A stretch of DNA of 33,235 nucleotides from Verrucomicrobiota bacterium (GTDB lineage: Bacteria; Verrucomicrobiota; Verrucomicrobiia; Opitutales; UBA953): assembly GCA_009917805.1 (NCBI GenBank), contig RGES01000001.1:1-33235 (forward strand), read 5' to 3'. The notes below the pieces were generated by a model. The model saw nothing but the letters and a program-made list of their open reading frames with translations, ran no database searches and was not told the origin of the DNA. How positions within the stretch are numbered: position 1 is the stretch's first letter; each line of letters starts with the position of its first letter. Made by a program: the position numbers and the translations under genes. Of the stretch, positions 1 through 33,102 are shown one piece after another.

Positions 1-1
1 A

Positions 2-1579
2 CCCTCAGGTCAAGGCGCCGCCTTGGTCAACGGCGCCCCCCTGCGCCAACGCCTCGACGTCACCGAAGCCACGACGATCCAGCTGCCCTCCGCCCTGCTG
101 GTCGCCGCCCCCGCGGACCAGCAGAACTTCGCCTTCGTCCGTACGGACCTCTGGGTCCTCTTCGACGCCCAGACCGGCGACCAGCTCGGCGAGTTTGCTC
201 CGCAACGCCTCCTCGACGTCGCCCAGGAACTCGGCCGCGCCACCGACACCCTCGCCTGCACGCCGCAAGGGCTCGAAGTCGGCTTCAGCCTTTCGCAGAT
301 CGCGCCATTGCTCTCGCCTCAGGAAGAGGCTCCCGTCCGCCCGAGCGGCAAGGCGATGCTCGCCGCCGAACAGAATCGCGGCGCCCACCTCTGCCCGGTC
401 TGCTGGACGCGCTTCGACGCCGGCGACGCGCTGAGCATCGCCGTGCATGAAGACCTGCGCGGCGACCCGATCCTCGGCTCCGACGCGCGCCTGCGCTTCC
501 AGCCGACGCGCTTCAACGACCAAGGCCTCGCCCTCGACCCGATGGGCCTCGCCTGCACCGACATCGCCTGCCCGCACTGCCGCCGCCAGCTCCCGCCCGG
601 CTACCTCGACCGCCCGCACCGCATCATCTCGCTCATCGGCGCGCCCAGCGCCGGCAAGTCCTACTACCTCGCGGTGCTCACCCGCACGCTGCAGGACCGC
701 CTGCCCGAGGACTTCAACCTGGCCTTCAAGGACGGCGACCCCAGCGGCAACATGCTGCTCAATCAGATGCGCAACACGCTCTTCTCCGCGGCGACGCCGG
801 AAGACGCTTTGCTCGGCAAGACGGCGCTCGAAGGCGCGACCTACGAGAAACTCCCGCGTCTCGGCCGCATGGTCTCCCTGCCCCGTCCGTTCATCTACTC
901 GCTCAGCCGCCCGGGCCAGCAGCGCAACGAGACCTCGGTCATCCTGTACGACAACGCCGGCGAACACTTCGAACCCGGCATCGACATCCATGACTCGCCC
1001 GGCGCGATGCACGTCGCGACCTCGAGCGGCCTGATCTTCCTCTTCGACCCCACCGCCAACGCCCGCTTCAAGGCCAAGCTCGTCGGCGTCGAAGACCCTC
1101 AGCTCTCGCTCAAAGGACGCATCGACCAGCAGGACAGCATCCTCGCCGAGATGGAGACCCGCATGAAGCGCGTCCTCGGCCTCGCGCAGGACGAGCGCAT
1201 CAAGACCCCCCTCGCCTTCGTCGTCGGCAAGTCCGACACCTGGGAGAAGCTCCTGAGCTCGCCGCTCGAACCGGTCGTCGCGGCCGGCGGCCTCGACCTC
1301 GCCGCCGTCGCCCGCAATTCCGCGCGCGTCCGCGAAGTCCTCATCGCGCTCTGCCCGGGACTCGTGGCCTCGGCCGAATCGCTGGCGGAACAGATCAGCT
1401 ACTTCGCGGCCACCTCGTTCGGCCATACGCCGGTGATGATCCAAGCCGGCCTGAACAAAGGCCGCATCGCTCCCGACCCGCAGCGCCTCGCGCCCGCGCA
1501 CGTCGAAGAGCCCCTCTACTGGCTGATGCACCTCGCCTCCCCGGCGATGTTCCCCGCCGCCGAAAACACCGCCCGCTGA
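2..1579 (+). CDS. Zinc-ribbon-containing TRAFAC-class P-loop GTPase, first gene of a 4-gene operon and probably 5'-truncated by the window edge
   Basis: The frame is open from base 2 with high GC3. The only in-window start before the Zn-ribbon is TTG at 23. Two CxxC pairs are present (CPVC from nt ~392, CPHC from nt ~569). G1/Walker A is GAPSAGKS (nt 638-661), G3 is DNAGE (nt ~950) and G4-like is GKSD (nt 1226-1237). The stop overlaps the next start (TGATG at 1577-1581). Confidence 0.85.
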   Translation, partial: PSGQGAALVNGAPLRQRLDVTEATTIQLPSALLVAAPADQQNFAFVRTDLWVLFDAQTGDQLGEFAPQRLLDVAQELGRATDTLACTPQGLEVGFSLSQIAPLLSPQEEAPVRPSGKAMLAAEQNRGAHLCPVCWTRFDAGDALSIAVHEDLRGDPILGSDARLRFQPTRFNDQGLALDPMGLACTDIACPHCRRQLPPGYLDRPHRIISLIGAPSAGKSYYLAVLTRTLQDRLPEDFNLAFKDGDPSGNMLLNQMRNTLFSAATPEDALLGKTALEGATYEKLPRLGRMVSLPRPFIYSLSRPGQQRNETSVILYDNAGEHFEPGIDIHDSPGAMHVATSSGLIFLFDPTANARFKAKLVGVEDPQLSLKGRIDQQDSILAEMETRMKRVLGLAQDERIKTPLAFVVGKSDTWEKLLSSPLEPVVAAGGLDLAAVARNSARVREVLIALCPGLVASAESLAEQISYFAATSFGHTPVMIQAGLNKGRIAPDPQRLAPAHVEEPLYWLMHLASPAMFPAAENTAR

Positions 1580-3711
1580 TGCCCCTCCAACTTATCTTCA
1601 CGTCGGCGCCCCAGGGACTCACCCCCGGCCGCAGCGGTTATTGCACCGTCGCCCGGCATCGCGCCATCCCCGACCGCCTCGCGCAGCTGCTCGAATCCGT
1701 CGGCACGCCGCATGAACGCGCGGAAGGCGAGACGTTCACGTTCCGCATGCTCGAAGCCGGCGGCAAGAACTGGTGCGTGCTCTCGCGCTTCGTCGCCCGC
1801 GGCCTGGACTACACCCAGCGCGACAACCGCCTGGCCCATCACCTCATCTTCTCCCACGAGGAAGCCGCCGTGCTGCCGCCGCCGGCCGCGATCGCCGGCC
1901 GCTGGAAAGGCTGGCGCAACGAATGGTCCGGCGCGCCCACCTGGCTCGAAGGCGAAGACCGCCCGTTGCAGCTGGAAGCCCAGACCCCGCTGACGCCCGC
2001 CGTGACGTGGCGCGAAGAAACCGGCACGGGCGCCAAGGCCGCCTGGCTCGTCAACGCCTCCGGCCCCGCGGCCGTCGGCCTGCTCAATCCGCCGGAGACC
2101 CTCCGCCTCCTCCGCCTGCTTGCCGAGGCCTCCGCGCTCCTGGGCAAATCCGCCTGGGCCGCCTCGTTCACGACCGACGCCACGACCACGGGCAGCGACG
2201 GCTTCCTCTGGGCGGTCCATGCGACCTCCGCGCCGGCGATCATCGACTTCGCCACCGCGAAAGCCCTGCCCGCTCCGTCAGGTGACATCGCCCGTCAGGC
2301 CGCCGCCGGCCTGACTTCGCCCAAAGCCGCCGCGGGCCAGCCGCAACGCCGCGCCGGCGCGCCGGCCCCGGCCGCCGCCGGCAACAACGCGACCGCCTGG
2401 ATCATCGGTGGCGTCATCATCCTGGCCGCCGTCGCGATCGTCCTCTTCACGCTGAACCGCCAAGCCGAACCGACGCCCCCGCCGGTGGTGGTCGAGGTGA
2501 AGCCGCAGCCGCCGGCCGCCGACACCGCCAAGACCGATGAGATCCTGAAGACCCACCGCGCCCTGACCGAGATCCAAGGCCTGATGGACGCCGATGACTT
2601 CATGGGCGCCGCCAAGCTCTGGGCCGAGACGAGCGCCCTTTCGCCGAACTTCGTCCGCAACTACCGCGAACAGGTCCTGCCGCGCATCCTGAGCAACTTC
2701 TCCGCGAGCGTCACGAAGCAGCTGCTCGGCCGCCTCGACCGACCGGGCGTGCTCAACGATCCGAAGTCCATCCAGGAGGCGATCGCCGAAGCCAAGGAAG
2801 CCCTTCGCCTCGGCGCCGAGATCAAGGTGCCGCAGGACGAGCCCTGGAAGCGCCTGGAGGCCTGCCTCGCGCGCGCCCAGTCCCTGACGAGCATCGAAGT
2901 CCGGCCGACGATGGTCATCCCCGGCGAATGGCGCACCGGCGAGTCCGGCCCGAACTCGCCGTCGCAAGCCGACTTCCCGCTCTCGCGTGCGGCCACCGAC
3001 GCCGTGGCCAGGTTCGTCGAGGCTTCCGGCGCGACGCAGCGCAATTCGGTGCAGATCCGCATCCGCCTGCTCCCCTTCACGTCGCCGCACCTTCGCGACG
3101 ATCGCACGAAGTACCTCAACGGCGAGATCCGTCGCACGCCGCAGTCGACCTGGATCGAGTCCTCCCCGGAACCGGGCAAGCTCCCGACGATCGGCATCAA
3201 CCTCAGCAACCGCCGCAACGAGGTGACGCTCAACTTCCCCGACGGCGAAGGCGCGCGCGCCGGCGCGAATCGCCTGATCGAGGTGGCCCTCCCCAACGGA
3301 GACCGCCAGTGCTTCGCCCTCATCGGGGACGTCAAGGGACTGCAGCCGCTCAACCTCGGACCGGACGCCCTGCTGCTCGACGCCGACACCGGCGTGATCC
3401 GTCCCGCGCCTTGGGCCGAAAGCGCGGTCAACGCGTTCATCTGGGTCAACGGCTCGATCGGGCTCTACCCCGAGGGACACGAGTTCCCCGACCGCGACCT
3501 GCCCTCGATCCGCGCGACCCGCTCGGTCCTCGAGACCGACATCATCCGCCTCGAGAACAAGCAAGGCCCCGGCACCCCTCCCTACGAGCTCATCGCCAAC
3601 CGCCGGAAGCTCTTCAAGGAAGGCAAGTACATGCAAGCCGGCGCCCCGTGGTCGATCCAGGCCATCGACGCCAACGGCGCCGCCGGCCCGCGCCTCCTGG
3701 AATTCCGCTGA
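1579..3711 (+). CDS. Bitopic membrane protein with a GAP1-N-like (GTPase-associated protein 1 N-terminal-like) cytoplasmic module, one TM helix and a ~415-aa C-terminal region of unknown family
   Basis: The N-terminus MPLQLIFTSAPQGLTPGRSGYCTVA...DYTQRDNRLAHHLIF matches my recollection of the GAP1-N consensus (hhYTS..GL..G..Gf.tvA...faH.L). A TM helix AWIIGGVIILAAVAIVLFTL lies at nt ~2395-2454, followed by a Pro-rich linker. The start overlaps the upstream stop by 1 nt. GC3 is high. Confidence 0.8.
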   Translation: MPLQLIFTSAPQGLTPGRSGYCTVARHRAIPDRLAQLLESVGTPHERAEGETFTFRMLEAGGKNWCVLSRFVARGLDYTQRDNRLAHHLIFSHEEAAVLPPPAAIAGRWKGWRNEWSGAPTWLEGEDRPLQLEAQTPLTPAVTWREETGTGAKAAWLVNASGPAAVGLLNPPETLRLLRLLAEASALLGKSAWAASFTTDATTTGSDGFLWAVHATSAPAIIDFATAKALPAPSGDIARQAAAGLTSPKAAAGQPQRRAGAPAPAAAGNNATAWIIGGVIILAAVAIVLFTLNRQAEPTPPPVVVEVKPQPPAADTAKTDEILKTHRALTEIQGLMDADDFMGAAKLWAETSALSPNFVRNYREQVLPRILSNFSASVTKQLLGRLDRPGVLNDPKSIQEAIAEAKEALRLGAEIKVPQDEPWKRLEACLARAQSLTSIEVRPTMVIPGEWRTGESGPNSPSQADFPLSRAATDAVARFVEASGATQRNSVQIRIRLLPFTSPHLRDDRTKYLNGEIRRTPQSTWIESSPEPGKLPTIGINLSNRRNEVTLNFPDGEGARAGANRLIEVALPNGDRQCFALIGDVKGLQPLNLGPDALLLDADTGVIRPAPWAESAVNAFIWVNGSIGLYPEGHEFPDRDLPSIRATRSVLETDIIRLENKQGPGTPPYELIANRRKLFKEGKYMQAGAPWSIQAIDANGAAGPRLLEFR

Positions 3712-3714
3712 TCC

Positions 3715-6663
3715 ATGCAGCTCGAACGCCTCATCGCCCGCATCCGCGGCCAGCTCGAGCTCGGCACCCCCGATCTGGAAGCGCGTTCCCTCGCCGGCGA
3801 ATACGCCGCGCTCTGCCAGCGCGCCCGCGAACGCCTCGAACAGTGCGCGACGCTCGTCCGGAGCGGCAACGAGCACGCCGCCTTCCAGTCCGCGGAATCC
3901 GACCCGGACCTCCTCGGCCTCTGCGCCCTGCTGAGCTTCGCGGAATCCGACCGCTGGCACGCCCTCTGCCGTGAACGCGGCCTGCCGGCCGGCTTCCCGC
4001 TCGACGGGCAGCACGTCCTCGCGGTCGAAGGCCTCTACGGCCGCGAGATCGGCGAAAGCCACCCGCTCTACCGAGATTACCGCGACGCCATCCGCCGCCG
4101 CGAAGAGGACCGCGCCCTCTCGGTCCTGCGCTCGATCGTCCGCATCAATCCGGAAGACCCCAACGCCCGCTCCGAACTGGCCCGCCTTTCCGCGAAGTTC
4201 CTCCGGGAATCGCTCGGCAAGGTCGCGACCTTCTTCGAACAAGGCCGCGAGGAAGAAGCCGTCGAGCTGATGAACCGGATGGAACGCTTCGGCGCGAACG
4301 ACCTCGCCGGAGAACCGCGCTGGGACGACGCCCTCGCCCGCCGCGTCGCCTGGCTCCGCTCCAAGGCCGCCCAACAGGTCGCCACGCTCGTGACCGAAGC
4401 CGCCGAAGCGCGCGCCGGCGGACACTGGGAAGCCTGCGCCGCTTCGCTGGGCCGCGTCCGCTCGCTCGAACGCGACCACCAGCTCACCCTTTCGGCCACG
4501 GTCTCCGCCGAGGTCGCCGAGCTCGAAGGCTGGGCCGGCGAGCTGGCCGCCATCGACGAAGCCGAAGCGACCCTACGCGCCACGATCGAAGGGCTGAACG
4601 ACGAATGGGCCACCCTGCAGCAGGAAGCCGCGCGCGCCTCATCCCCCGCGATCCTCATCGTCCGCCTCAGCTCCTGGCTCGAACGCGCGACCCCGCAGGC
4701 GGAACGCCTGCCGGAAGGCATCCTCCGCGAAGCCCGCGCGCTGCGCCAGAACACCCGCGCGCGCCTCAATCGCCGCTACATGGTGCTGACGACCTCCTGG
4801 GTCGGCGGGCTCCTCCTGCTCATCGCCGGCGTGGTCTACTGGAACATCCTCAAGACGCAGGAAGAAGAATCCCGCGACCGCTTCTCCGAGGCCTCGCGCC
4901 TGATCGAGCTCTACGACCATCCGGCCGCGCTCGTCGCGCTCGAGGAATTCGAACGCGGCGGCCTTTCCGCCGCCGACCAAGCCGCCCGCAAGGCGCAGAC
5001 GATCCCGCTGCGCCAACGTCTCGCGACCCAGAACGCCGACGAGCAACGCCTTCGCCTCGAGGCCCTCGCCCTCGCCGACCGGCGCAAGCAAGGACTGACC
5101 TTGGGCAACGTCGCCGAGACCGAAAGCCGCGCCGGCAAATACCTCCAGGAATTCAACCAGGTCGGCGGCACCCTCCAAGCCAAGCTCAAGGCCATCCTGC
5201 CCGAACCGGAAGGCCTGCTGTCCGCCTGCCGCCAGATGCTCGACCGGACGCGCAACGACGTCGCCGCCCAGATCGCCGCGCTCAACAAGGCGATGGGCGA
5301 CGAAAATATCGCCGACCTCACCAAGGCGGCCGAAGCCCTCGAACGCCTTCGCCTGCTGCTGAAGACCCTCGCCGACGCCAAGGACAAGGACCTTGATTCC
5401 GCGCTCGCCGCCGCCGATCGCGCCGAGCTGCGCCTCTCCGGGGAGCGCAAGACGATCGCGGCGCTCCGGAGCCTCGGCAAGGCCGCCGACCTCGCGGGCT
5501 ACCTCGCCGCGTTGTCCGACACCGCCGCGAACACGGCCGGCGAGAAGTCCGACCTGAGCTCGCGCGCCTCCTTCGTCTTCACCCGGGCGCCCACCCTGCA
5601 GGCCCTCCCGCGCTCGGCGCTCGCGCCGCGCGTCGGCGCGATGTGGGACGCGGCCGCCACCGCCGACCCTTCCGGCATCTTCAATCCGCCCACGCTCACC
5701 GACGTCGAACAACGCGGCCTGCGCAGCCTCTCCGACACCTCGCTGGCCGACTCGCTCCGCCGCTTCACGCTCAACGGCTATTCGGTCCGCGGCGTCGCGA
5801 CCGGGCGGACCGTCTACGTGATCGGCGAGATCGTCGAATCGAAACGCCCCATCACCGACGGCCTCGAGTTCACCCAGAAGGCCAAGGAACTCACCCGCGA
5901 AGGCGCCGTGGTCGAGAGCACCTGGAGCCGGCGCGAATTCAACAACGGCGTGCGCGCCGGCGAAGAGATCGTCAGCCCGGCCGCGATCGGCGAGCTCGAC
6001 TTCATCCGCCAGGTCAGCCGCTTCCAGGACGCGAAGACCGGCAAGCTGCTCGAGCCCCTCATCCGCACGATGGAACGCGTCCGCCGCAGCGAATCGCGCT
6101 ACCCGGAACTGCGCGCCTACCAGCTCCAGGAACTCTACAAGCTCGCGACCTCCCGCCCCGACGCCTGGGGCCTGCTCTTCTCGCCGTCCGCCCAGCGCGA
6201 CGCCGACCAGCTGCGCCGGATCACGCAGAATTCGCTGCGCCCCTACGACTTCCTGTTCAAGGACAAGTGGGCCGACATCCAGCCGGAACTGCGCGCCTTC
6301 CTCGCGCCGCCGGGCGGCGCCGGCTACGCCGAGGAAGCCCGCTTCTGGCGCGCGACGTTCGCGAACCTGCGCAACCGTAAGCTGATCTTCGCCGGCTGGG
6401 CCGGCCGCGACGGCAAACCCGAGCTGCGGGAAACCATCAAGGGCAGCGCCCTCTACGGCCTCGACAACGAAGGCAAGGCCACCGTGCTCTTCCGCATCGG
6501 CGAAGACGGCGAGGTCAAGCGCGTCGCCGAAGCCGCCCCGCTCACCCCGCTGCTCCGCTACCCCGGCACCGTCGCCGAGGCCGCGCAGGCCGCCGGCATC
6601 CCGAAAGGCCTGCTCGCCCCCGACGGCGGGTGGGAAACCCTCCTCCAAGGACGAGATCTCTGA
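3715..6663 (+). CDS. Large (982 aa) bitopic membrane protein with a helical N-terminal region, one TM helix, a long alpha-helical/coiled-coil-like stretch and a C-terminal globular region; no recognised family
   Basis: The ATG lies 3 nt after the upstream stop. An Arg-rich flank RQNTRARLNRRY precedes the TM helix MVLTTSWVGGLLLLIAGVVYWNIL (nt ~4777-4845), which suggests an N-in topology. Composition is consistent with coding and GC3 is high. Confidence 0.8.
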   Translation: MQLERLIARIRGQLELGTPDLEARSLAGEYAALCQRARERLEQCATLVRSGNEHAAFQSAESDPDLLGLCALLSFAESDRWHALCRERGLPAGFPLDGQHVLAVEGLYGREIGESHPLYRDYRDAIRRREEDRALSVLRSIVRINPEDPNARSELARLSAKFLRESLGKVATFFEQGREEEAVELMNRMERFGANDLAGEPRWDDALARRVAWLRSKAAQQVATLVTEAAEARAGGHWEACAASLGRVRSLERDHQLTLSATVSAEVAELEGWAGELAAIDEAEATLRATIEGLNDEWATLQQEAARASSPAILIVRLSSWLERATPQAERLPEGILREARALRQNTRARLNRRYMVLTTSWVGGLLLLIAGVVYWNILKTQEEESRDRFSEASRLIELYDHPAALVALEEFERGGLSAADQAARKAQTIPLRQRLATQNADEQRLRLEALALADRRKQGLTLGNVAETESRAGKYLQEFNQVGGTLQAKLKAILPEPEGLLSACRQMLDRTRNDVAAQIAALNKAMGDENIADLTKAAEALERLRLLLKTLADAKDKDLDSALAAADRAELRLSGERKTIAALRSLGKAADLAGYLAALSDTAANTAGEKSDLSSRASFVFTRAPTLQALPRSALAPRVGAMWDAAATADPSGIFNPPTLTDVEQRGLRSLSDTSLADSLRRFTLNGYSVRGVATGRTVYVIGEIVESKRPITDGLEFTQKAKELTREGAVVESTWSRREFNNGVRAGEEIVSPAAIGELDFIRQVSRFQDAKTGKLLEPLIRTMERVRRSESRYPELRAYQLQELYKLATSRPDAWGLLFSPSAQRDADQLRRITQNSLRPYDFLFKDKWADIQPELRAFLAPPGGAGYAEEARFWRATFANLRNRKLIFAGWAGRDGKPELRETIKGSALYGLDNEGKATVLFRIGEDGEVKRVAEAAPLTPLLRYPGTVAEAAQAAGIPKGLLAPDGGWETLLQGRDL

Positions 6664-6666
6664 CCG

Positions 6667-7299
6667 ATGTCACGCCCCACCCAATTCCGCCTCCGCTGGA
6701 AAGGCGCCGTCACCGGCCCCTTCCCGCTCCTGCGCGTCAGCGAGATGCTCCGCGCCGGCGAGATCAGCCTCCTGCATAACATCGAGGTCGACGGTTCCTG
6801 GATGACCGTGCGCGACTACTTCCGCGCGATCGGCCTCACCCGGGCGCCTTCGGCTTCGGCGGCGGAGAATTCCGGACTCGGCGGCGAAGCTCCGCCGCCG
6901 CCGCCCGGCGCCGAACATCCGCTCGGCGAGGCGCTCACGCCTGACGCCGCCCGCAACGCCGCCGGGGAATCGCTCGAACGCACGGTCCGCGAAGGCTACC
7001 TCTGGTGCGGCTCGACCTTCCTGCTTCCGCCGCTGTTCGCCTTGCTGGTCTACGTGATCTACATCCTGGACGGCGACCATCAGCTCTCGCGCACGATGTT
7101 CCTCATCATGCTCGGCTTCACGACCACGCCGGCGGCGCTCCTGCCGATCCTGTTCGTCCGCAAGCTGGGCCTGACCCTCGAGCAAGAAGGCTTGTCGGAC
7201 ATCCGCCAAACCCAGGGAAATCTGGTGATCGTCCTCGGTTTCCTGAGCCTGGCCCTCTGGATGCTCTGCTTCTTCGTGCTGCTCCCCAGCCGTCCGTGA
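6667..7299 (+). CDS. GYF_2 (DUF4339-type) domain protein with about three C-terminal TM helices
   Basis: The N-terminus RLRWKGAVTGPFPLLRVSEMLRAGEISLLHNIEVDGSWMTVRDYF fits the bacterial GYF_2 pattern. Hydrophobic helices are YLWCGSTFLLPPLFALLVYVIYIL, MFLIMLGFTTTPAALLPILFV and LVIVLGFLSLALWMLCFFVLL. The ATG lies 3 nt after the upstream stop. Confidence 0.8.
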   Translation: MSRPTQFRLRWKGAVTGPFPLLRVSEMLRAGEISLLHNIEVDGSWMTVRDYFRAIGLTRAPSASAAENSGLGGEAPPPPPGAEHPLGEALTPDAARNAAGESLERTVREGYLWCGSTFLLPPLFALLVYVIYILDGDHQLSRTMFLIMLGFTTTPAALLPILFVRKLGLTLEQEGLSDIRQTQGNLVIVLGFLSLALWMLCFFVLLPSRP

Positions 7300-7357: not shown

Positions 7358-7434
7358 GGTAGTGTAGCTCAGTTGGTTAGAGCGAGGGACTCATAAGCCC
7401 TAGGTCGGCAGTTCGATCCTGCCCACTACCACCA
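7358..7434 (+). tRNA. tRNA with a CAU anticodon (elongator tRNA-Met, or tRNA-Ile2 if C34 is lysidinylated), with encoded CCA
   Basis: Cloverleaf read by eye. The acceptor is GGTAGTG/CACTACC with discriminator A and CCA. The D-arm is GCTC-AGTTGGTTA-GAGC, the anticodon loop is CTCATAA and the T-arm is GGCAG-TTCGATC-CTGCC. G1:C72 is paired, so it is not an initiator. Confidence 0.9.
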
Positions 7435-14520: not shown

Positions 14521-15820
14521 ATGGCACTCACTTCCTTTAAGAGCAACCTCATCGCCGACGTCGGCATCAGCATGGGAGACGAAGGCAAAGGTCGCCTCAT
14601 CCCCGAGATCGTCCGCGAACTGCAGACCCTCACCGGCCGCCGCGACGTGGTCGGCACGGTGCTCAAGGTCAACGGCGGCGCCAACTCGGGCCATACGGTC
14701 GCCGGCCTGAAGCTCAACCTGCTGCCGGGCGGCGTGGCCGAACACGACGTCGCCTGCCTGGCCCTCGGCTCCGGCGTCGTCGCCGACCCGCGCAAGGCCC
14801 TCTGGGAAGCCCTCCCGCTCGAGAAGATCGGCATCCCGGTCCTCAACCGCCTGCTCATCGACGAGCGCTGCATGATCAGCGACGTCTCGCACCGCATCCT
14901 CGACCTGGCCTGGGAAGACTACCGCATCCACATCCTCGGCCATGAAGCCCGCGGCTCCACCGGACGCGGCATCACCCCGGCCTACGCCGACGAAGTCGGT
15001 CAGTTCCAGATCCACTATTCGGAATTCCTCGGTGCGAAATCCGACTACGCGACCCGCCTCTCGGCTCGCCTGAACCGCGCCGCCTCGATCGTGCGCGACG
15101 TCTGCAAGCTCTCGCCCGACAAGTGGTCCGGCCTCTTCGCCAAGCTCACCGAAGCCGAACTGCGCGCCAACAAGGGCGCCATCGAATCCGGCGTCTTCAC
15201 GGCCGCGGAATTCGACTTCACCCGCTTCGCCGGCAAGGATCCCTTCACCTTCGACCACGCCGCCGTGCTCGAGTGCTACTGGAAGGCCGGCGCCGCCCTC
15301 GCCCACGCCATCGGCGACGTCCGCGAACGCATCCTCGGCGACCTCGCCGCCGACCGCCGCATCATCGGCGAGTTCGGTCAGGCCTACTGGCTCGACAAGC
15401 GCGCCGGCTTCGCCCCGAACGTCACGGCCTCCCACACCTACACGCCGGAGTTCTTCCAGTCCGCCGGCATCCCGGTCCAGGCGATCCACACGGTCGGCTG
15501 CTGCAAGGGGCTACCGCGACGCGGCCGGCAAGGTGGTCTCGGGCGTCCCCCGCAACGACGCCGTCCGCCGCACCCTGCAGCCCATCTACGCCACCCTGCC
15601 CGGCTGGTCGGCTGACATCACCAAGGTCCGCTCCTACGCCCAGCTGCCCGCTGAGGCGCGTCGCTACGTCGCCTTCACGATGGCCGAGATCGTCCGACTG
15701 GCATCCCGCGGCGGCTCCCTGCCCTACCTCCCGAACCTTCGCTACATCGGCGTCGGTCCGGATCCTGACCAGATCATCTCCGACGTCCCCGCGACGGCCG
15801 AACTGATCAAGCAGGCCTGA
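14521..15820 (+). pseudogene. Adenylosuccinate synthetase-like gene, frameshifted and apparently missing the central IMP/aspartate-binding segment
   Basis: Frame 1 (14521 to ~15510) carries [28 protein letters not shown] and a TASHT...GCCKG(Y) region. Frame 2 (from ~15509) continues [13 protein letters not shown]...[12 protein letters not shown]...YIGVGPDPDQ, which is the PurA C-terminus. The frame switch is at the GGGG run 15507-15510. No KAY-TRVG-GPFPTE or TGRxRRxGW blocks are present. Confidence 0.6.
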
Positions 15821-15822
15821 GC

Positions 15823-17259
15823 TCAGAGCAGCGTCCCGCGCAAGACCAAGGCGGCGACGACGAAGTAGATCACGAGTCCGGTGACGTCCACGATGGTCGC
15901 CACGAACGGCGCGGCCGCCTTGGCCGGATCGAAGCCGAGCCGGCGGAGCAGGAACGGCAGCATGGCGCCCGAAAGGCTGCCCCAGAGCACGACGCCGACG
16001 AGGGAAAGGAAGATGACGAAACCGATGAGCATCCAATGCGGACCGTAACCGTACTCCTGCCCGCATAGGTTGGGGAAGAATTCGTGCCACACGGCGATGC
16101 GGGCGAAACCGATCACGCCGAGGATGACGCCGAGCGTGAGGCCGCTCATGACCTCGCGACGGAAGACCCGGAACCAATCCCGCAGGGTCACCTCCGACAA
16201 AGCCATCGCCCGGATCACCAGCGCCGAGGACTGGGAGCCTGAATTGCCGCCGGAAGAGATGATCAAGGGCAGGAACAGGGAGAGGACGACGGCCTTCTGG
16301 ATCTCGCCTTCGAAGAAGCCCATCGCGGTGGCGGTGAACATCTCCCCGACGAAGAGGATCACGAGCCAGCCGGCACGCTGGCGGACCAGCTGCATCAACG
16401 GCGTCTCCAGCAACGGCTCGTCGGGCACTTCGGCGCCGCCCAGCAAGGCGATGTCGCGCGCGGCCTCCTCGGTCGCGGTCTCGAGCACGTCGTCGACGGT
16501 GACGATGCCCAGCACCCTGAGCTCGGCGTTGACGACCGGGATGATGGTCCGGGCGTGACGGCGGAACATGGCCAAGGCGTCGGCCCGCGTGGCCGTGACC
16601 TTGAGGTAGAGCGGCGGAGCCGCCGGTAGTTCGGCGACCTTGATCGCGGGATCGGCGCGGAAGATATCGCGGATACGGTGCACTCCGACCAGGCGACCCT
16701 CGGCATCCACCGAGCAGACGACGTGGACGTAATAGACTTCCTTGGCGCGATCACGGACGTGATCCAACGCCTGCTGCACGGTCCAATCCCGGCTGAGCGT
16801 CACGAAGCTGGTGGTCATCATGCGACCCACGCTATCCTTCGGATAACCGAGCAGCTGTACCGCGATGCGCTGCTGGGCGGGGTCGAGCAGGCCGAGAAGC
16901 CGGACGGCATGCTCGGGGCATTCCTCAAGGAAGGCGGTACGATCGTCGTCCGACATCGCGTTCAGGATCTCCGCGGCCTCGTTGGCGCCCAAGGAACGGA
17001 TCAACGCCTCCTGGGCGTCGGAATCCATATAGCCGAAGATCTCCGAGGCGTCGGCCTTGGGCAGAAGACGGAAACTGACGGCCATCTGCACGGGGTCGAG
17101 TTCCCGGAGCAGGTCGGCGGCGTCGGCGTGCGGCAACTCCAGCACCAGCTTGCGCAAGGCCGCGAAATCACGCTTTTCGACAAGGACGCTGATGTCCTCG
17201 ATGTGCTTTGGATTTGCAGACATCGCCCCCATCCTCATCCCATGGGACGCCTTCGGCAA
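15823..17259 (-). CDS. mgtE: Magnesium transporter MgtE
   Basis: An MgtE N-domain (ADLLRELDPVQMAVSFRLLPKADASEIFGYMDSDAQEALI), a CBS pair, and a C-terminal TM domain with SSGGNSGSQS and IVDVTGLVIYF. Alternative in-frame starts lie at 17238, 17232 and 17223. Confidence 0.9.
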   Translation of the reverse strand: MPKASHGMRMGAMSANPKHIEDISVLVEKRDFAALRKLVLELPHADAADLLRELDPVQMAVSFRLLPKADASEIFGYMDSDAQEALIRSLGANEAAEILNAMSDDDRTAFLEECPEHAVRLLGLLDPAQQRIAVQLLGYPKDSVGRMMTTSFVTLSRDWTVQQALDHVRDRAKEVYYVHVVCSVDAEGRLVGVHRIRDIFRADPAIKVAELPAAPPLYLKVTATRADALAMFRRHARTIIPVVNAELRVLGIVTVDDVLETATEEAARDIALLGGAEVPDEPLLETPLMQLVRQRAGWLVILFVGEMFTATAMGFFEGEIQKAVVLSLFLPLIISSGGNSGSQSSALVIRAMALSEVTLRDWFRVFRREVMSGLTLGVILGVIGFARIAVWHEFFPNLCGQEYGYGPHWMLIGFVIFLSLVGVVLWGSLSGAMLPFLLRRLGFDPAKAAAPFVATIVDVTGLVIYFVVAALVLRGTLL

Positions 17260-17611: not shown

Positions 17612-18481
17612 TCAGCCGGCGAAGGCCTTCACGGTCTCGAGATGCAGCTCGGCCACCTGCTCCAAGGTGAGCCCGCCCCACTTGTAGCCGCCGGCCAGGG
17701 CGAAGATGTGCGGGATCTTCCGCGCCCGCGCCCAATGGACGACGACCTTCTCGCGCTTGCGGATCATGTCCTTGGTGATGCCCTTCATGCCGCCGGCCTT
17801 CTCGTAGGTGTCCATGCCGGCGTTGTAGATCAGGAAGTCGACGCGCTCCAAGGAGTGGAGCGCGTCCTCGACATGACCCAGGTAACCACGGGGGTCGTCC
17901 ACCTCGACGTAGAAATGCCGCTCGGGATGCGTCGGCTCCCAGGAGTCGAAGCTGTTGACGGTGACGTCGGCCAGGTAAACCCGCTCATGGTCGCCGAGGA
18001 TGTCGAAGGTACCGCCACCGGCATGGGCATCCAGGTCCAGGATGCCGACGGCTTTCACCTTCTTGAGCGCCTCGAGCGCGGCGAGGGCGAGCCCGTTGAA
18101 CTGGCAGAAACCGTTCCCGGAGTTACGACGCGCATGGTGGAGACCGCTGGACAGACTGCCGGAGCGGCCGTGCTTCAAGGCCTCGCGGACCGCATCGCGC
18201 ATGCCGCCGGTCGAGGCCAGGATGCTGCCCAACAACGCCTGCGACCACGGCCCCACTTCCAGGAAACTGCCCTTGTCCTCGAAGGTGCTGCGCACGTGCT
18301 CCGGCGAATGGATCAGTTCGAGTTCCTTGCGCGTCGCGAGCTTGGGCGCCTCAAGCCACACCTCGCCCGCCTTCCCGGCTTCGATCAGCTCCGCGACCAG
18401 CCGGGATTTGGTGACCGTCTCGGACATGCCTTCGACGACGTAGGCGGGGCTGTAGTAGACGGTGAGCGGCGACTGCGGCAT
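17612..18481 (-). CDS. Histone deacetylase-family (arginase-fold) Zn-dependent deacetylase, short form (~290 aa)
   Basis: GLHHARRNSGNGFCQFNGLA (catalytic HH and GFC.FN) and ILDLDAHAGGGT (DxDxH metal site). I prefer the ATG at 18481 (MPQSPLTVYYSP). The 119 upstream codons of the track ORF look off-composition (R/G-rich). Confidence 0.8.
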   Translation of the reverse strand: MPQSPLTVYYSPAYVVEGMSETVTKSRLVAELIEAGKAGEVWLEAPKLATRKELELIHSPEHVRSTFEDKGSFLEVGPWSQALLGSILASTGGMRDAVREALKHGRSGSLSSGLHHARRNSGNGFCQFNGLALAALEALKKVKAVGILDLDAHAGGGTFDILGDHERVYLADVTVNSFDSWEPTHPERHFYVEVDDPRGYLGHVEDALHSLERVDFLIYNAGMDTYEKAGGMKGITKDMIRKREKVVVHWARARKIPHIFALAGGYKWGGLTLEQVAELHLETVKAFAG

Positions 18482-18586
18482 GACGGTGTTATGCCCGCCG
18501 GATAGACCTCCGTCAAATCGGCCCCCTGTCATAGGTTGCGGTTGGCTTCGGGCGGCCGAGCCCCCATCCTGAGGCCGTCCTTTCCG

Positions 18587-19432
18587 ATGCCCTTCGACCC
18601 CAAGATTCCACGAGAACTCGCTAAAAAACTCGGGCGGGAGGCGATGCAGGTCATCGAACTGGGCCTCTACGCCTCGCCGAGCAGCCGGCAGGTCGACATC
18701 GCCGCCGACATCGCCTCGGCCGTGGCCCGCACGACCCACCTGCCGCCCGACCATCGTCACACCTTTCCCCGGACCGGTCCGCACGCGACGACGATCGAAG
18801 TCACCGAGGAGACGTCGCTCTCCGCGGCCGCCCGGCATGATGCGGCAGGCCTGCGGACGGTCGTGCTGAACTTCGCCTCACCGACGGTGCCGGGCGGCGG
18901 CTTCCTGGCCGGCGAACGCGCCCAGGAGGAATACCATTGCCGGTCCTCCGCCCTCTTCGCCTGCCAGGTCAACGGACCGATGTACGCCTTCCACCTGCAG
19001 CAAGGCAATGCCCTGCGCACGGATGCGATGATCTACTCGCCCGACGTCCCGGTCTTCCGGGCCGACGACCATCGCATGCTCGAGACACCCTTCAAGGTGG
19101 CGTTCGTTTCCGCCGCCGCCTGCGACGCCCGGGACGTCGCCCCGCTCGATCAGCCGAAGATCTCCGGCGCGATGGGCGCCCGCATCGTCAAGGTGCTTGC
19201 GGTCGCCCAAGCCAACGGCCACGACGCCCTGGTCCTAGGGGCCTGGGGCTGCGGCAACTTCGCCAACGACCCCGGGCTCATCGCCGACCTCTTCCGACAG
19301 GCCCTCATGGGTCCCTTCAAGGGCGCGTTCCGACGCGTCACGTTCGCGATCGTCGACACCAGCGCCGACCAGCGATGCCTGAACCAGTTCCGGCTGGCGC
19401 TGACGCAGAAAGCCGCGCCGTCGCATAACTGA
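18587..19432 (+). CDS. TIGR02452/DUF2263-type macrodomain protein (bacterial PARG-like, putative ADP-ribose glycohydrolase)
   Basis: VVLNFASPTVPGGGFLAGERAQEEYHCRSSALF and LVLGAWGCGNFANDP are characteristic of this family. I prefer ATG 18587 over TTG 18536. Confidence 0.8.
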   Translation: MPFDPKIPRELAKKLGREAMQVIELGLYASPSSRQVDIAADIASAVARTTHLPPDHRHTFPRTGPHATTIEVTEETSLSAAARHDAAGLRTVVLNFASPTVPGGGFLAGERAQEEYHCRSSALFACQVNGPMYAFHLQQGNALRTDAMIYSPDVPVFRADDHRMLETPFKVAFVSAAACDARDVAPLDQPKISGAMGARIVKVLAVAQANGHDALVLGAWGCGNFANDPGLIADLFRQALMGPFKGAFRRVTFAIVDTSADQRCLNQFRLALTQKAAPSHN

Positions 19433-19435
19433 GGC

Positions 19436-20704
19436 TCAACCTTTGGCCTGCTTCACCAAGCGACGCAGGATGACCGCCGCTTCCGCCTGACCAGAGGGGA
19501 AGAAGAACACGACGTCGCCGCCCGTGTCCTTGTCGATCTCGATGGCGTTGTTGTAGACGGTGACGTCGAGCACCTTGGCGTACTTGAAGTTCAGGCTCTT
19601 GAGGCTGCCGGAGAAGATGACGCGCTTCGAGGTGAAGACCAGGATGCCGGAATCCACCTTCTCGAGCCGCTGCTCGGTCTGACGCTCGACCTCATAGGAA
19701 CCGGTTCGATAACGCAACGGCCCCCAGATCTTGATGCTGGTGCCGAACCCGCCGTAGCTGCGACGGGTGGTGACTCGCTTGTTGAGGCCAAGCTCCACAT
19801 GCTGCGTCCAGAAACAACCCTCGTTCCCCAGATCCAGCTCGCATGGCACCTCCTTCAGCGGCGAACGGCAGAGCGACCAAAGCCGCTGCGCGCTGTCGAT
19901 CCGGTCGACCAGCTTGTCATCCATGCTCAGATTGATGTCCATCTGCTTGATTTCGGAGGCGAAGGCGGCGTAGGCCGCGGGATCCATGACCTCGCCGCCG
20001 TCCTCTTGTCTCATCAACGCCTTGAGGCGCTGTTCGAAATACGACTGCATGGCGGCGCCGAAAGTCTCCTTGACCTTCTCCTCGGAGAGGGGGACTTCCT
20101 TGCCGAGCAGGTTGATCTGTTCCCTTTTCTGCTGAGGCGGGATATCGCGCAGCAGGACGGTGAGCATGCCGATCCGACAATAACTGGCGAAGGCTTCGCC
20201 GTGGATCGCCTCGGCCGCCGACGCGTCCAAACCGAAACTGCGGGCGAGGTTGCCGAGGTCGGTCTTCTCCTGCGGCGCAAAATAGCGGTCGGACAGATAG
20301 GCTTCGACGGCCTGGCGATACCATTTGAGGAGGTCTTCCCGACAACGCTTGCGGACGTCATAGCCCAGTTTTTCACCCAAGGAAGCCCACGCTTCTTCGG
20401 GGATCAGGCACTGCGTCGGTGCCTTCGAAAGCAGGTCCCAGACGGCCAGCAAGCCGGCCTGATAGCTCTCCCGCCCCAGCATGCCGTCCAACAGGTTGGC
20501 CCCCTTCTCGACCGGACGCGGAAAGGGCAGGACTCGGACCGTAGCCGGCAAGACGGCCAAAGTCAGCCATCCTGCCATGCCAGGCTTCCAGTAATGATCG
20601 GTCGGCTTTAATTCGCCCGAGGCCAGCTTGGAGCGGACCTCATCCGGAGCCCAGGCGCCGATTTCGACGCCGGCGCGGGCGATATGGACCGGTTCGGTTG
20701 ACAT
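19436..20704 (-). CDS. GYF_2-domain protein with a helical middle region and a C-terminal bacterial PH-like region
   Basis: The N-terminus VHIARAGVEIGAWAPDEVRSKLASGELKPTDHYWKPGMAGWLTLAVL fits the GYF_2 pattern. The C-terminus GILVFTSKRVIFSGS...FKYAKVLDVTVYNNAIEID...VVFFF resembles bPH/GRAM-like folds (inference). The ATG at 20704 lies 4 nt after the upstream gene's stop. Confidence 0.75.
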   Translation of the reverse strand: MSTEPVHIARAGVEIGAWAPDEVRSKLASGELKPTDHYWKPGMAGWLTLAVLPATVRVLPFPRPVEKGANLLDGMLGRESYQAGLLAVWDLLSKAPTQCLIPEEAWASLGEKLGYDVRKRCREDLLKWYRQAVEAYLSDRYFAPQEKTDLGNLARSFGLDASAAEAIHGEAFASYCRIGMLTVLLRDIPPQQKREQINLLGKEVPLSEEKVKETFGAAMQSYFEQRLKALMRQEDGGEVMDPAAYAAFASEIKQMDINLSMDDKLVDRIDSAQRLWSLCRSPLKEVPCELDLGNEGCFWTQHVELGLNKRVTTRRSYGGFGTSIKIWGPLRYRTGSYEVERQTEQRLEKVDSGILVFTSKRVIFSGSLKSLNFKYAKVLDVTVYNNAIEIDKDTGGDVVFFFPSGQAEAAVILRRLVKQAKG

Positions 20705-20708
20705 GATC

Positions 20709-21530
20709 TTACTTGAGGCGGAGGAGGATCGCCTCGCCGACCTGGGCGCCGAGGAAGTCGTAGCCTTCGCCGGTGAAGTGGACGTCGTTGGGATTCTGCA
20801 ACTTGGCGAGATGGGGCGTGATCGCGGCGAAGAGGTCGTCGGTCGGGATGCCATGCTTCTTCATGACCTCGGCGGCGAGCGCGTTCTTCTCGACGATCGA
20901 CGCGGCGGTCTGCTTCTGCGCCGGGTTATCCGGGACCGGGGTCGTGCTGGCCCAGATGAGCTTCGCCCCGGTCTTCTCGAGACGGGTTACGATCTCCTCG
21001 AGCCGCTTGACGTAGTCGGCCGCCGGCGTCGCCCGGTCATGGATACCGAAATTGAAATGGATGACGTCCCACTTTCCTTCGCCCAGCCAGACATCGAGGT
21101 TCTTGACGCCCGAGGCGGTCGGGCCGCAGTTCGCCGGCGCGCGATGGATGTTGGCCTTGCCCTCCAGCACCTTGCGGGTGGGCTGGGTATAACCACGCGA
21201 GACGGAATCCCCGATCAGCAGCACACGCGGGAGCTTGGGATCGTCCTTCACGAAGTCCCAGGCGTTGGATTTACCGGCGATCTTATCGCGTTTGTGAAGC
21301 GGCAGGTAGAAATTGCCGAGCTGTCCCTGGAGGACTTTCTCCCAGGCTTGCTCCTCGGGCGAGAGCTTCGCCAACCAGGCCTGATAACGCTCGTCGACGA
21401 CCTTTTCCTGCGCCGCTTTCTTGGCCGCCGCCTGCGCCGCCGCCTCCTTGGCGTTCGTCGGTTCACCTTTCGGGGGTTCGGCGGCGACAAGGGCAAAAGA
21501 AAGGCAGAGCAAAACGAGCAGGGGCTTCAT
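20709..21530 (-). CDS. Secreted SGNH/GDSL-family hydrolase (esterase)
   Basis: A signal peptide MKPLLVLLCLSFALVAA is present. The SGNH blocks are LLIGDSVSRGY (I), ANCGP (II), FNFGIHD (III) and NDVHFT (V). The track ORF extension beyond 21530 overlaps the next gene and is rejected. Confidence 0.85.
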   Translation of the reverse strand: MKPLLVLLCLSFALVAAEPPKGEPTNAKEAAAQAAAKKAAQEKVVDERYQAWLAKLSPEEQAWEKVLQGQLGNFYLPLHKRDKIAGKSNAWDFVKDDPKLPRVLLIGDSVSRGYTQPTRKVLEGKANIHRAPANCGPTASGVKNLDVWLGEGKWDVIHFNFGIHDRATPAADYVKRLEEIVTRLEKTGAKLIWASTTPVPDNPAQKQTAASIVEKNALAAEVMKKHGIPTDDLFAAITPHLAKLQNPNDVHFTGEGYDFLGAQVGEAILLRLK

Positions 21531-28550: not shown

Positions 28551-29291
28551 TTATTTGAGCACCTTGGCGGCGTAGCCCTGCATCAGCTTGGCCTGGGCTT
28601 CGTCGAGCTTGCCCGCCCCCTTCGGCGCCGGGTCCTTCACGCCGTAGATCTTCCCGAAGAAAATGAGGGCGTTGAGATAGGTGCCGACGAACTCGGGGTG
28701 CGAGTTGTCCTTCTGATGGAGCCGCACGGGCGAAGAGGACGCGTAGTTGAGTTCCCAGGCGTCGCCGCATGGCACCAGCTGCGCCTTGTTATCCTTCGCG
28801 GCGACTCCGTACCATTTGCGCAGCCTCGCCTGCATCTCCTTCGGGTCCTTGCCCATCGCGGAGGCCTTCTTGCTCTCGGTCCAGTAGTCGGCATGACGCG
28901 CCCACGTCTCGTAGAAATAGATCTTCGCCTGCGGGCTCTTGGCCCGGACGCGCTGGCAGAGCTCGGCCGCGCTCGCCAGGAACTCCTTACGCGTGGCCTC
29001 GTCCGTCTCGGCGAGCGCCGGCTCCTGGCTTTGACCTTGGAGCACGACGACATCCCAGCCTCCCTCGTCGATGAGCAGCTGCTGCTTCAGGGTGCGGCCG
29101 CCGGGCGTGGAGGATTTCACCACCGGTTCCTTGCGACCGGAGCCCTTCACGACGTCGAGGAAGACGTCCGGGAGTTTGTTGACGCCGGTGTAGCTGTTCC
29201 CGATGAAAAGGACACGCTGCGGATCTTCCGCGAAGGCGACCGTGGCGAGCATCAGGAAGGCGGCCAACCATGACATCGGGGCGAATCTCAT
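28551..29291 (-). CDS. Secreted SGNH/GDSL-like hydrolase
   Basis: A signal peptide MRFAPMSWLAAFLMLATVAFA. The blocks are LFIGNSYT (block I, GNS variant), STPGG (II), VVLQGQSQEP (III-like) and KDNSHP (V, DxxH). An alternative start lies at 29276. Confidence 0.8.
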   Translation of the reverse strand: MRFAPMSWLAAFLMLATVAFAEDPQRVLFIGNSYTGVNKLPDVFLDVVKGSGRKEPVVKSSTPGGRTLKQQLLIDEGGWDVVVLQGQSQEPALAETDEATRKEFLASAAELCQRVRAKSPQAKIYFYETWARHADYWTESKKASAMGKDPKEMQARLRKWYGVAAKDNKAQLVPCGDAWELNYASSSPVRLHQKDNSHPEFVGTYLNALIFFGKIYGVKDPAPKGAGKLDEAQAKLMQGYAAKVLK

Positions 29292-29332
29292 GGCGCCAGC
29301 ATTCCGCAGAATCGAAGGATGACAACCCCGAC

Positions 29333-33016: not shown

Positions 33017-33102
33017 GGCTAATTCCTTCGATTAGCCAGCATCCGCCATAGGCTTTCAATTACAGATTACTTAATCTGACCTTAAGAAACGGAGCCGACA
33101 TC

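Follow-up and report, generated by a model that had tools for sequence, protein, structure and literature searches.

A conserved four-gene membrane GTPase operon of Opitutia, related to GAP1-N2-type DO-GTPase systems, as a candidate trans-envelope module

The stretch of DNA analysed here, which we call the window, comprises 33,235 nucleotides from a Verrucomicrobiota bacterium of the Opitutales (assembly GCA_009917805.1, contig RGES01000001.1, positions 1 to 33,235, forward strand). It opens with four consecutive genes, here named A to D, that encode a predicted GTPase and three predicted membrane proteins. The G+C content of the window is uniform along its length at ~65–70%, and at such high G+C (~70%) many long spurious open reading frames (ORFs) arise on both strands. 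The four ORFs all lie on the + strand and span positions 23 to 1579 (A, with the frame open from position 2), 1579 to 3711 (B), 3715 to 6663 (C) and 6667 to 7299 (D). The TGA stop codon of A and the ATG start codon of B share one nucleotide (TGATG, 1577–1581), and spacers of three nucleotides separate B from C (TCC, 3712–3714) and C from D (CCG, 6664–6666). An initial annotation of the sequence had listed the same four ORFs with one overlap of 1 nt and two gaps of 3 nt, and inspection of the sequence confirmed them. Distant relatives keep the B/C and C/D junctions tight, with 3-nt gaps in locus L003 and 4-nt overlaps in L088. We conclude that the four ORFs form a real, tightly coupled operon.

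Gene A is cut at its 5′ end by the window edge. An identical B occurs on two public contigs, which supply the complete A gene and its upstream context. On the identical contig L001, A encodes 577 amino acids, the first 52 codons lying before the start of the window. The public contigs also carry a divergently transcribed gene for an extracytoplasmic function (ECF) sigma factor upstream of A. On the downstream side, a tRNA-Met gene (anticodon CAT; 7358–7434, + strand) predicted by ARAGORN forms the operon boundary and lies outside the system; beyond it are rsfS and nadD on the − strand, followed by lpxI on the + strand. The divergent sigma factor gene upstream and the tRNA-Met, rsfS and nadD genes downstream thus delimit the operon to exactly four genes. 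We also considered a mobile island inserted at the tRNA gene and ruled it out: an integrase is absent, synteny is kept and the G+C content is uniform.

The part of gene A that lies in the window (2–1579) encodes residues 53–577 of a cytoplasmic TRAFAC GTPase of the DO-GTPase2 type. The Pfam model DO-GTPase2 scored 25.6 bits against the window protein, slightly below its cut-off of 27; it matched all 19 of the 19 aligned A homologues, with a best E-value of 1.6e-8. The Walker A motif or P-loop, GAPSAGKS, is encoded at 638–661 and follows an invariant G-A-P-x-x-G-K-S pattern. The Walker B motif, ILYDNAGE (941–964), contains the family-defining glutamate within an invariant YDNAGE, and a conserved KT pair occurs between the two motifs in the homologue alignment. 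Further downstream is a G4-like guanine-specificity motif, VGKSD (1223–1237), in which the lysine and the aspartate are invariant and which reads NKMD in L088. N-terminal to the P-loop, a module of four cysteines is encoded at 392–580, comprising CPVC (392–403) and CPHC (569–580). All four cysteines are invariant in the 19 homologues, down to 36% identity, and we take the two motifs to form one predicted four-cysteine zinc site. The N-terminal ~100 residues of A align with the region that Pfam assigns to FHA in the distant homologue L092 (E 4e-7), the one protein among the 19 homologues in which Pfam detected FHA. Since the positions of the phosphothreonine-binding Arg, Ser and His residues of FHA domains are not conserved in the window protein, we call this region FHA-like only. 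A sequence search of the PDB with A returned no match.

Gene B (1579–3711) encodes a GAP1-type protein of 710 residues, predicted from Pfam, alignment and modelling to be oriented N-in/C-out. Residues 4–123 (1588–1947) form a GAP1-N2 domain (Pfam PF20013, E 3.6e-16), which was matched in 20 of 20 B homologues. A second conserved cytoplasmic region, residues 124–245 (1948–2313), occupies the position expected for GAP1-M and contains the invariant residues W144, K153–A155, E183, F197–T199 and W211; Pfam matched neither GAP1-M nor GAP1-C in any of the 20 homologues. A low-complexity linker comes next, and then a single transmembrane helix at residues 274–292 (2398–2454; hydropathy 2.75), modelled as a helix spanning residues 273–292. 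The predicted periplasmic domain (2515–3708) consists of a helical bundle (residues 313–436) and a β-sandwich region (residues 444–710), both modelled by AlphaFold with a pLDDT (predicted local distance difference test) of 80–93. Foldseek returned only weak matches to STAT-core-like and Ig-like structures for the B model, and no enzyme. A profile search with the periplasmic domain retrieved 277 proteins, of which the best 120 of 277 were all GAP1-N2 proteins or fragments of them. The sequences of its A-B pair place the operon among the GAP1-N2-type DO-GTPase systems.

Gene C (3715–6663) encodes a bitopic protein of 982 residues from a family that has no Pfam model. HMMER, run exhaustively, recovered 762 cluster representatives with E ≤ 1e-3, of which 155 reached E ≤ 1e-30; almost all of these representatives have 950–1050 residues and align end to end. 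No relative was found in Pfam, NCBIfam or the PDB, Pfam detected no domain in 43 C homologues, and a C profile run against PDB sequences returned coiled-coil compositional matches only. The AlphaFold model has a mean pLDDT of 86.5. Residues 1–355 (3715–4779) are predicted to form a cytoplasmic helical domain resembling tetratricopeptide repeats (TPR), with a pLDDT of ~90, and include the most conserved block of the protein, HPLYRDYRDA (residues 116–125, 4060–4089; HPLYRDYRxA in the family). A transmembrane helix follows at residues 356–379 (4780–4851), located by hydropathy and of low pLDDT in the model. It is preceded by a cluster of five arginines, RQNTRARLNRR, which supports an N-in orientation. 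The predicted periplasmic part begins with a region of long helices (~260 residues; residues 387–650, 4873–5664), for which the sequence matches were coiled-coil compositional only, and ends in an α/β domain with long β-hairpins (residues 680–982, 5752–6660; pLDDT 86–96). Conserved columns in this domain include R814, W818, G819, G894 and P945, and a conserved RPxxWG motif is encoded at 6154–6171. Searched as a whole against PDB and viral structures with Foldseek, the C model gave only generic TPR and helical matches, with template-modelling scores of at most 0.25.

Gene D (6667–7299) encodes a protein of 210 residues with a GYF-like cytoplasmic domain on an anchor of three transmembrane helices, as judged from alignment and hydropathy. 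The GYF_2-like domain, residues 7–56 (6685–6834), is conserved in all D-equivalents (tblastn E ~1e-6) and carries the pattern R-L-R-W-K-G...G-P-F...W over its ~50 residues. Pfam detected neither GYF_2 nor any other domain in the window protein; at the equivalent position, GYF_2 was matched in L093 (residues 9–46, E 1.7e-4) and L086 (E 0.044), and a weak precomputed match exists for L095. The linker between the GYF-like domain and the membrane helices is variable. It contains a PPPPPG motif (6892–6909) ahead of the first helix, and 45 of 66 distinct D orthologues have PPPP(P)G; we speculate that the motif is a ligand of the GYF domain, in the same chain or in another. A hydropathy scan placed the three helices at residues 116–134, 146–164 and 186–204 (7012–7278). 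Among deep lineages the anchor is interchangeable, with RDD, TM2, DUF4190 or plain transmembrane helices in its place.

These results partly agree with the initial annotation, which had described a co-translated four-gene membrane GTPase module with three membrane proteins among the four. The module is supported, and transmembrane helices were found in B (one), C (one) and D (three). The description of A as a zinc-ribbon TRAFAC GTPase holds for the GTPase motifs and the four invariant cysteines, with zinc binding predicted from the motif, and the pairing of a TRAFAC GTPase with a GAP1-like protein is borne out by the DO-GTPase2 and GAP1-N2 matches across the homologues. For B, the GAP1-type N-terminal domain and the single helix stood, and the C-terminal part left without assignment can now be described as a helical bundle plus β-sandwich. 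The bitopic nature of C likewise stood, with one helix at 356–379; its description as helical did not hold throughout, residues 680–982 being α/β. Of the GYF_2 domain proposed for D on an anchor of about three helices, the anchor was found as described and the domain was recovered in orthologues, with no Pfam match in D itself. The annotation had also seen no recognisable effector. In agreement, no nuclease, protease, TIR or pore-toxin signature was found for A–D in Pfam, NCBIfam, PADLOC or Foldseek searches; NCBIfam gave nothing at all for the four proteins, and the PADLOC-DB v2 models reached an E-value no better than 0.09. Fibronectin type III (FNIII) domains were not matched by Pfam in A–D. 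The sole β-sandwich is the weakly Ig-like C-terminal region of B, a gene that is not rapidly evolving (whole-gene dN/dS, the ratio of nonsynonymous to synonymous substitution rates, 0.08–0.26).

To follow the operon across genomes, we scanned for a single peptide of the C family, HPLYRDYRxA, which biases the scan towards Opitutia. This gave 135 matches, from which 80 loci were retrieved, all apparently from Opitutia/Verrucomicrobiota. A complete set of the four genes was found in 56 of these; the remaining 24, mostly on short or end-cut contigs, could not be scored for all four. There is one GTPase gene per locus, and its upstream neighbour is the ECF sigma factor gene, which adjoins the operon in 57 of 58 evaluable loci. 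On the other side, rsfS adjoins the operon in 50 of 55. The five loci without an adjacent rsfS comprise four with an insertion of ~2.5 kb and a fifth, L084, with different flanks. L064 (13560–15864), L065, L067 and L080 have this insertion between D and rsfS; the L064 copy codes for a large exported protein with a PEP-CTERM-like sorting signal at its end. The outer flanks in Opitutia include the genes for citrate synthase, hisHBC, ptsI, lpxI, panB and gpsA. The initial annotation had proposed a survey of gene neighbourhoods; we find that A-B-C-D recurs in the 56 complete Opitutia loci and in distant lineages, so that the co-occurrence of the four genes is not confined to this genome.

The identity of A–D to the window proteins tracks that of nadD and rsfS, with Spearman coefficients of 0.85–0.90 over 50 loci. 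Compared with six close relatives, dN/dS was 0.05–0.11 for A, 0.08–0.26 for B, 0.09–0.23 for C and 0.13–0.36 for D, next to 0.08–0.17 for rsfS and nadD, and dS was similar across all genes. The Opitutia operon is therefore vertically inherited and under purifying selection; its fixed position, its co-divergence with nadD and rsfS and the selection acting on it mark a core-genome operon rather than a mobile arms-race cassette. The neighbouring ECF sigma factor (L001:184–774, − strand) is 75–100% identical among orthologues, with dN/dS of ~0.01. In the intergenic region between it and A (L001:775–891), a block TGACA...(about 14 nt)...AATTCAAC is kept across 15 loci.

The order A-B-C-D also occurs in nine lineages whose C proteins are distant (19–33% identical) and whose genomic contexts are unrelated (L086/87, L088/89, L090, L091, L092, L093, L094, L095 and L096); L084, from the genome scan, represents a tenth. 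A-B-C-D is the fixed core in every related locus sampled, and variation among the deep lineages is limited to the membrane anchor of D and the presence of an additional block. In five independent lineages (L086/87, L088/89, L092, L093 and L094, of which L093 comes from the named Verrucomicrobiales genome GCA_029213265.1), a gene of the MotA_ExbB family directly follows D. The encoded proteins are 53–59% identical to one another. Downstream are genes for two bitopic coiled-coil proteins, whose transmembrane helices start with the conserved sequences FAFQDIIT and LLLDTMCN; an acidic residue in a transmembrane helix is the pattern of ExbD, TolR and MotB. Because the MotA block is present in some lineages only, we distinguish a long form, composed of ABCD and a stator-like trio and sometimes of more genes, from a short form of ABCD only. 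The short form is that of Opitutia, L090 and L095. Loci L090, L093 and L094 lie in housekeeping contexts.

Some of the long-form loci have further genes. In L086 (16605–18997), two extra genes without a Pfam match encode a 398-residue protein with a DxSGS motif, resembling the MIDAS site of vWA domains, and a 386-residue protein with an FHA-like N-terminus and a transmembrane helix. Next to the long form of L092 (1–4727 and 17451–22997) is a ubiquitin-like conjugation cluster with a ThiF E1, JAB and a UQ_con E2 fused to FHA; Dynamin_N, a phage integrase and a Prok-RING+GYF_2+CD225 protein are also encoded nearby, a defence-island-like neighbourhood unlike that of the window. Around the long form of L088/L089 (254–4946 and 21254–23048) there are numerous small unannotated ORFs together with DNA_pol_B_thumb and DUF6011, and this context may be mobile or phage-derived.

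We propose that the window operon is the short, motor-less form of a Verrucomicrobiota four-component membrane GTPase module and that its products would make up a GTPase-gated trans-envelope complex. The proposal is tentative, and we put its probability at roughly 0.45. It builds on the layout of C, which is like that of TonB, TolA and GltG, and on the MotA linkage in relatives, which together suggest a GTP-gated trans-envelope transducer. A, with its predicted zinc module and degenerate FHA-like N-terminus, would cycle between GTP and GDP in the cytoplasm, probably as a homodimer. The GAP1-N2 domain of B would dock on A and read or set its nucleotide state; by docking there, B could couple that state to its own transmembrane helix and periplasmic domain. 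C would provide a TPR-like cytoplasmic platform and a long arm of helices in the periplasm with a globular α/β domain at its tip, and D would tether a GYF-type adaptor to the membrane. The C platform and the GYF domain of D may assemble with A and B at the inner membrane face into a GTP-gated complex of fixed stoichiometry that spans the envelope, with the periplasmic domains of B and C as its output or input end. In sister lineages the same core would be wired to a MotA/ExbB channel and two partners with an aspartate in the transmembrane helix, which could constitute a proton-driven stator. The Opitutia module would then be a vertically inherited, constitutively retained envelope device and not a mobile immunity cassette.

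Domain identities, topology signals, gene order, vertical inheritance under purifying selection and, in relatives, the MotA linkage are observations; a physical A-B-C-D complex, its gating by GTP, the transmission of force or signal through the periplasm and a cellular role in envelope integrity, surface coupling or sensing are steps that we infer beyond them. Several points weigh against the proposal. A MotA/ExbB gene is absent from the 33-kb window, and none was found within 10 kb in the 80 Opitutia loci, so the motor analogy is drawn from relatives. In those relatives Pfam ExbD did not match the two proteins encoded after MotA, whose assignment as partners is drawn from a short motif. The B model has low confidence over its N-terminal half, with a pLDDT below 50 in many stretches, because the input alignment was shallow. 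D evolves fastest of the four, with dN/dS up to 0.36, and the long form of L092 has an integrase gene and the ubiquitin-like conjugation cluster as neighbours. Finally, the founding paper on these systems reads the whole class as conflict systems.

According to that paper (Kaur, Burroughs, Iyer and Aravind, eLife 2020; PMC7159879), DO-GTPase systems are nucleoside triphosphate (NTP)-dependent conflict systems in which the effectors vary and a sensor protein with FNIII repeats evolves rapidly, a reading that is itself a prediction. Applied to the window, it would make the operon an anti-invader system of the abortive-infection type, in which the periplasmic domains of B and C sense phage or a breach of the envelope, A and B set a threshold, and D or a perturbation of the membrane serves as the effector. 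Membership in the GAP1-N2 DO-GTPase class, predicted to consist of conflict systems (PMC7159879), speaks for this, as do the interchangeable small membrane modules of the D-equivalents, which are typical of effector or anchor slots, the position of D at the top of the dN/dS range, and the surroundings of L092 (E1, E2, JAB, Dynamin_N and integrase genes) and of L088/89 (small ORFs, DNA_pol_B_thumb and DUF6011). The Opitutia loci fit it poorly: wherever enough flank is available, the operon holds a near-invariant position between housekeeping genes; its gene content is constant, with no variable effector; and it diverges together with nadD and rsfS under purifying selection of the same level. 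Moreover, no PADLOC model matched, Pfam and Foldseek revealed neither a toxin nor a nuclease, protease or TIR fold, the FNIII-repeat sensor protein typical of the class is absent, and L093, L094 and L090 likewise lie among housekeeping genes. We consider an anti-invader function unlikely. The defence role raised by the initial annotation finds no support at this locus, which shows no defence island and has housekeeping flanks and housekeeping-like dN/dS.

The near-constant neighbour of the operon suggests another possibility, namely envelope-signal transduction tied to the divergent ECF sigma/anti-sigma pair, with ABCD either sensing a periplasmic cue for the ECF regulon or forming the main output under its control. 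The adjacency in 57 of 58 evaluable Opitutia loci is joined by that in L095, where a sigma gene again lies next to the operon although C is only 28% identical, the sigma factor itself being 59% identical; the extreme constraint on the sigma factor (dN/dS ~0.01) and the conserved intergenic TGACA...AATTCAAC block point the same way. Yet no ECF gene adjoins the operon in L084, L086, L088, L090–L094 or L096, the gene that follows the sigma factor differs between L003 and L095, and the adjacency could simply be inherited synteny. On balance we regard this coupling as unlikely. That the four genes are unrelated neighbours, or ORF artefacts of a 70% G+C sequence, was worth considering in view of the many long spurious ORFs on both strands. 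Each of the four has hundreds of full-length homologues, their order and tight junctions are conserved down to 19–29% identity in different genomic contexts, and their dN/dS is well below 1; these conservation data already refute such an origin, to which we attach next to no probability.

A bolder extension of the trans-envelope proposal concerns the long form. ABCD, MotA/ExbB and the two Asp-containing partners could together be an as yet unrecognised Verrucomicrobiota trans-envelope machine, gated by the GTPase and powered by the proton motive force. We regard this as possible, if rather doubtful. Were it true, the machine would be a housekeeping counterpart of Tol-Pal or Agl-Glt, with a role in uptake, surface coupling or the tethering of the outer membrane and not in immunity; the assignment of the 'GAP1-N2 conflict systems' would be mistaken for this branch at the least; and the Opitutia form would be a reduced one, either working as a GTP-controlled scaffold or borrowing a motor encoded elsewhere.

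The large class of DO-GTPase/GAP1 systems has been recognised by comparative genomics only. This locus offers a clean, minimal version of such a system, with four constant proteins and no variable parts, in an operon widespread among the abundant Opitutia of fresh water. A concrete, testable mechanism is suggested by the linkage of the core to a MotA/ExbB stator in sister lineages. If the operon has a housekeeping role, it would represent a new kind of GTPase-controlled envelope machine in bacteria of the Planctomycetes-Verrucomicrobia-Chlamydiae group, whose envelope biology is poorly understood, and the functional label of part of the published "conflict system" class would have to be revised. 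If it serves defence, it would be a defence system without a recognisable effector, fixed at a core-genome position.

Elsewhere in the window, a second GYF_2 protein (19436–20854, − strand; Pfam E 1.8e-6) is encoded 12 kb from the operon. It is apparently soluble and otherwise unannotated, and its likely start is an internal methionine near residue 51. At 17612–19432, neighbouring genes for a histone deacetylase family protein (− strand) and a microbial-type poly(ADP-ribose) glycohydrolase (+ strand) overlap at their 5′ ends. An ORF resembling adenylosuccinate synthetase (14521–15615, + strand; 364 residues) aligns with the profile over no more than the first ~180 of its 416 positions and is followed by a convergent mgtE (15823–17259); its orthologues in L003 and L005 have 515 residues, and the ORF may be a truncated gene or may mark a synteny or assembly break near 15.6 kb. 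Towards the end of the window, an ORF of 1250 residues without a Pfam match (29270–33022, + strand) is mirrored over nearly its full length by an ORF on the opposite strand (29333–33016).

Several known systems resemble the operon in part. The conservons of Streptomyces encode a membrane sensor, a Roadblock protein, a DUF742 protein and a Ras-like GTPase (CvnA–D). Like the window operon, they are conserved four-gene operons that combine a membrane protein with a small-GTPase switch and have no obvious output domain. The families are unrelated, however: Pfam found no Roadblock/LC7, DUF742, HATPase or MglA-like GTPase in the window operon. A closer likeness in layout is to Tol-Pal and TonB-ExbBD. 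C, and B as well, combine a transmembrane helix, an extended periplasmic part and a C-terminal globular domain in the manner of TolA and TonB, and long-form relatives encode a MotA/ExbB-family channel directly downstream. In contrast to the operon, Tol and Ton lack large cytoplasmic domains and a dedicated GTPase. Pfam TonB_C, TolA and ExbD have no match here, the C-terminal domains of B and C matched no TonB or TolA structure when the whole models were searched with Foldseek, and the window contains no motor.

Among experimentally studied systems, the best analogue is the Agl-Glt focal-adhesion gliding machinery of Myxococcus xanthus (MglA, GltJ, GltG, GltI and AglRQS), in which a GTPase switch acts on an envelope-spanning complex. 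There, MglA-GTP switches assembly by way of GltJ, which has ZnR and GYF modules; FHA domains are found on GltG, GltI serves as a scaffold of TPR type, and in the motor, AglR5QS, a pair of different plug subunits accompanies a single TolQ-type channel (PMC11761067). ZnR-, GYF- and FHA-type modules at the cytoplasmic face, a TPR scaffold and bitopic inner-membrane proteins with long periplasmic arms and globular ends have counterparts among the predicted features of A–D, and the single MotA/TolQ-type channel with two putative Asp-in-helix partners in long-form relatives is reminiscent of AglR5QS. The likeness is a functional analogy without shown homology. A is no Ras-like GTPase of the MglA kind, the GTPase itself carries the ZnR and FHA-like modules here whereas membrane proteins carry them there, no TonB-C-like domain, outer-membrane component or adhesin was identified here, and the window has no motor genes.

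The nearest relatives are the GAP1-N2 DO-GTPase systems. In the definition of Kaur et al., DO-GTPases are TRAFAC GTPases whose Walker B motif contains a glutamate and which often have one or two N-terminal zinc ribbons, and GAP1 is the product of the downstream gene, with three globular domains N, M and C (PMC7159879). They reported transmembrane components in 67% of DO-GTPase systems, frequent fusion of C-terminal transmembrane segments to GAP1, GAP1-N2 systems in verrucomicrobiae and planctomycetes, GYF domains fused to a transmembrane-rich region in some planctomycete systems, and 'double' paralogous GTPases in 38% of systems (PMC7159879). The initial annotation had called the architecture undescribed and had taken the known systems to be soluble. 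Neither statement stands, given what that paper says about membrane association, Verrucomicrobia and GYF-transmembrane partners; the A-B-D logic was already there. The text of the paper has 0 occurrences of MotA, ExbB, TolQ and RDD, and its supplement has no searchable entries for Opitutus, GYF or Verrucomicrobia. In the literature searched, we found no experimentally characterised DO-GTPase/GAP1 member.

The window operon shares with these systems a TRAFAC GTPase that has the Walker-B glutamate and a predicted N-terminal zinc module, a GAP1-N2 gene directly downstream whose product has a C-terminal transmembrane helix and a predicted extracytoplasmic domain, a GYF-like domain on a transmembrane-rich protein, and an occurrence in Verrucomicrobia, which the class combines with one in Planctomycetes. 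It differs from them in having a single GTPase gene and in that GAP1-M and GAP1-C are undetected, and it lacks the FNIII-repeat protein, the variable effectors and the tubulin, HSP70 and kinase themes. Here the ~1000-residue C joins A and B as a constant component, MotA/ExbB and putative partner proteins are present in addition in long forms, and the Opitutia operon is a syntenic core-genome operon under purifying selection. The additions to what the text of Kaur et al. describes are the constant C family with its ABCD core, the MotA-linked long form, and the housekeeping-like evolution of the operon in Opitutia.

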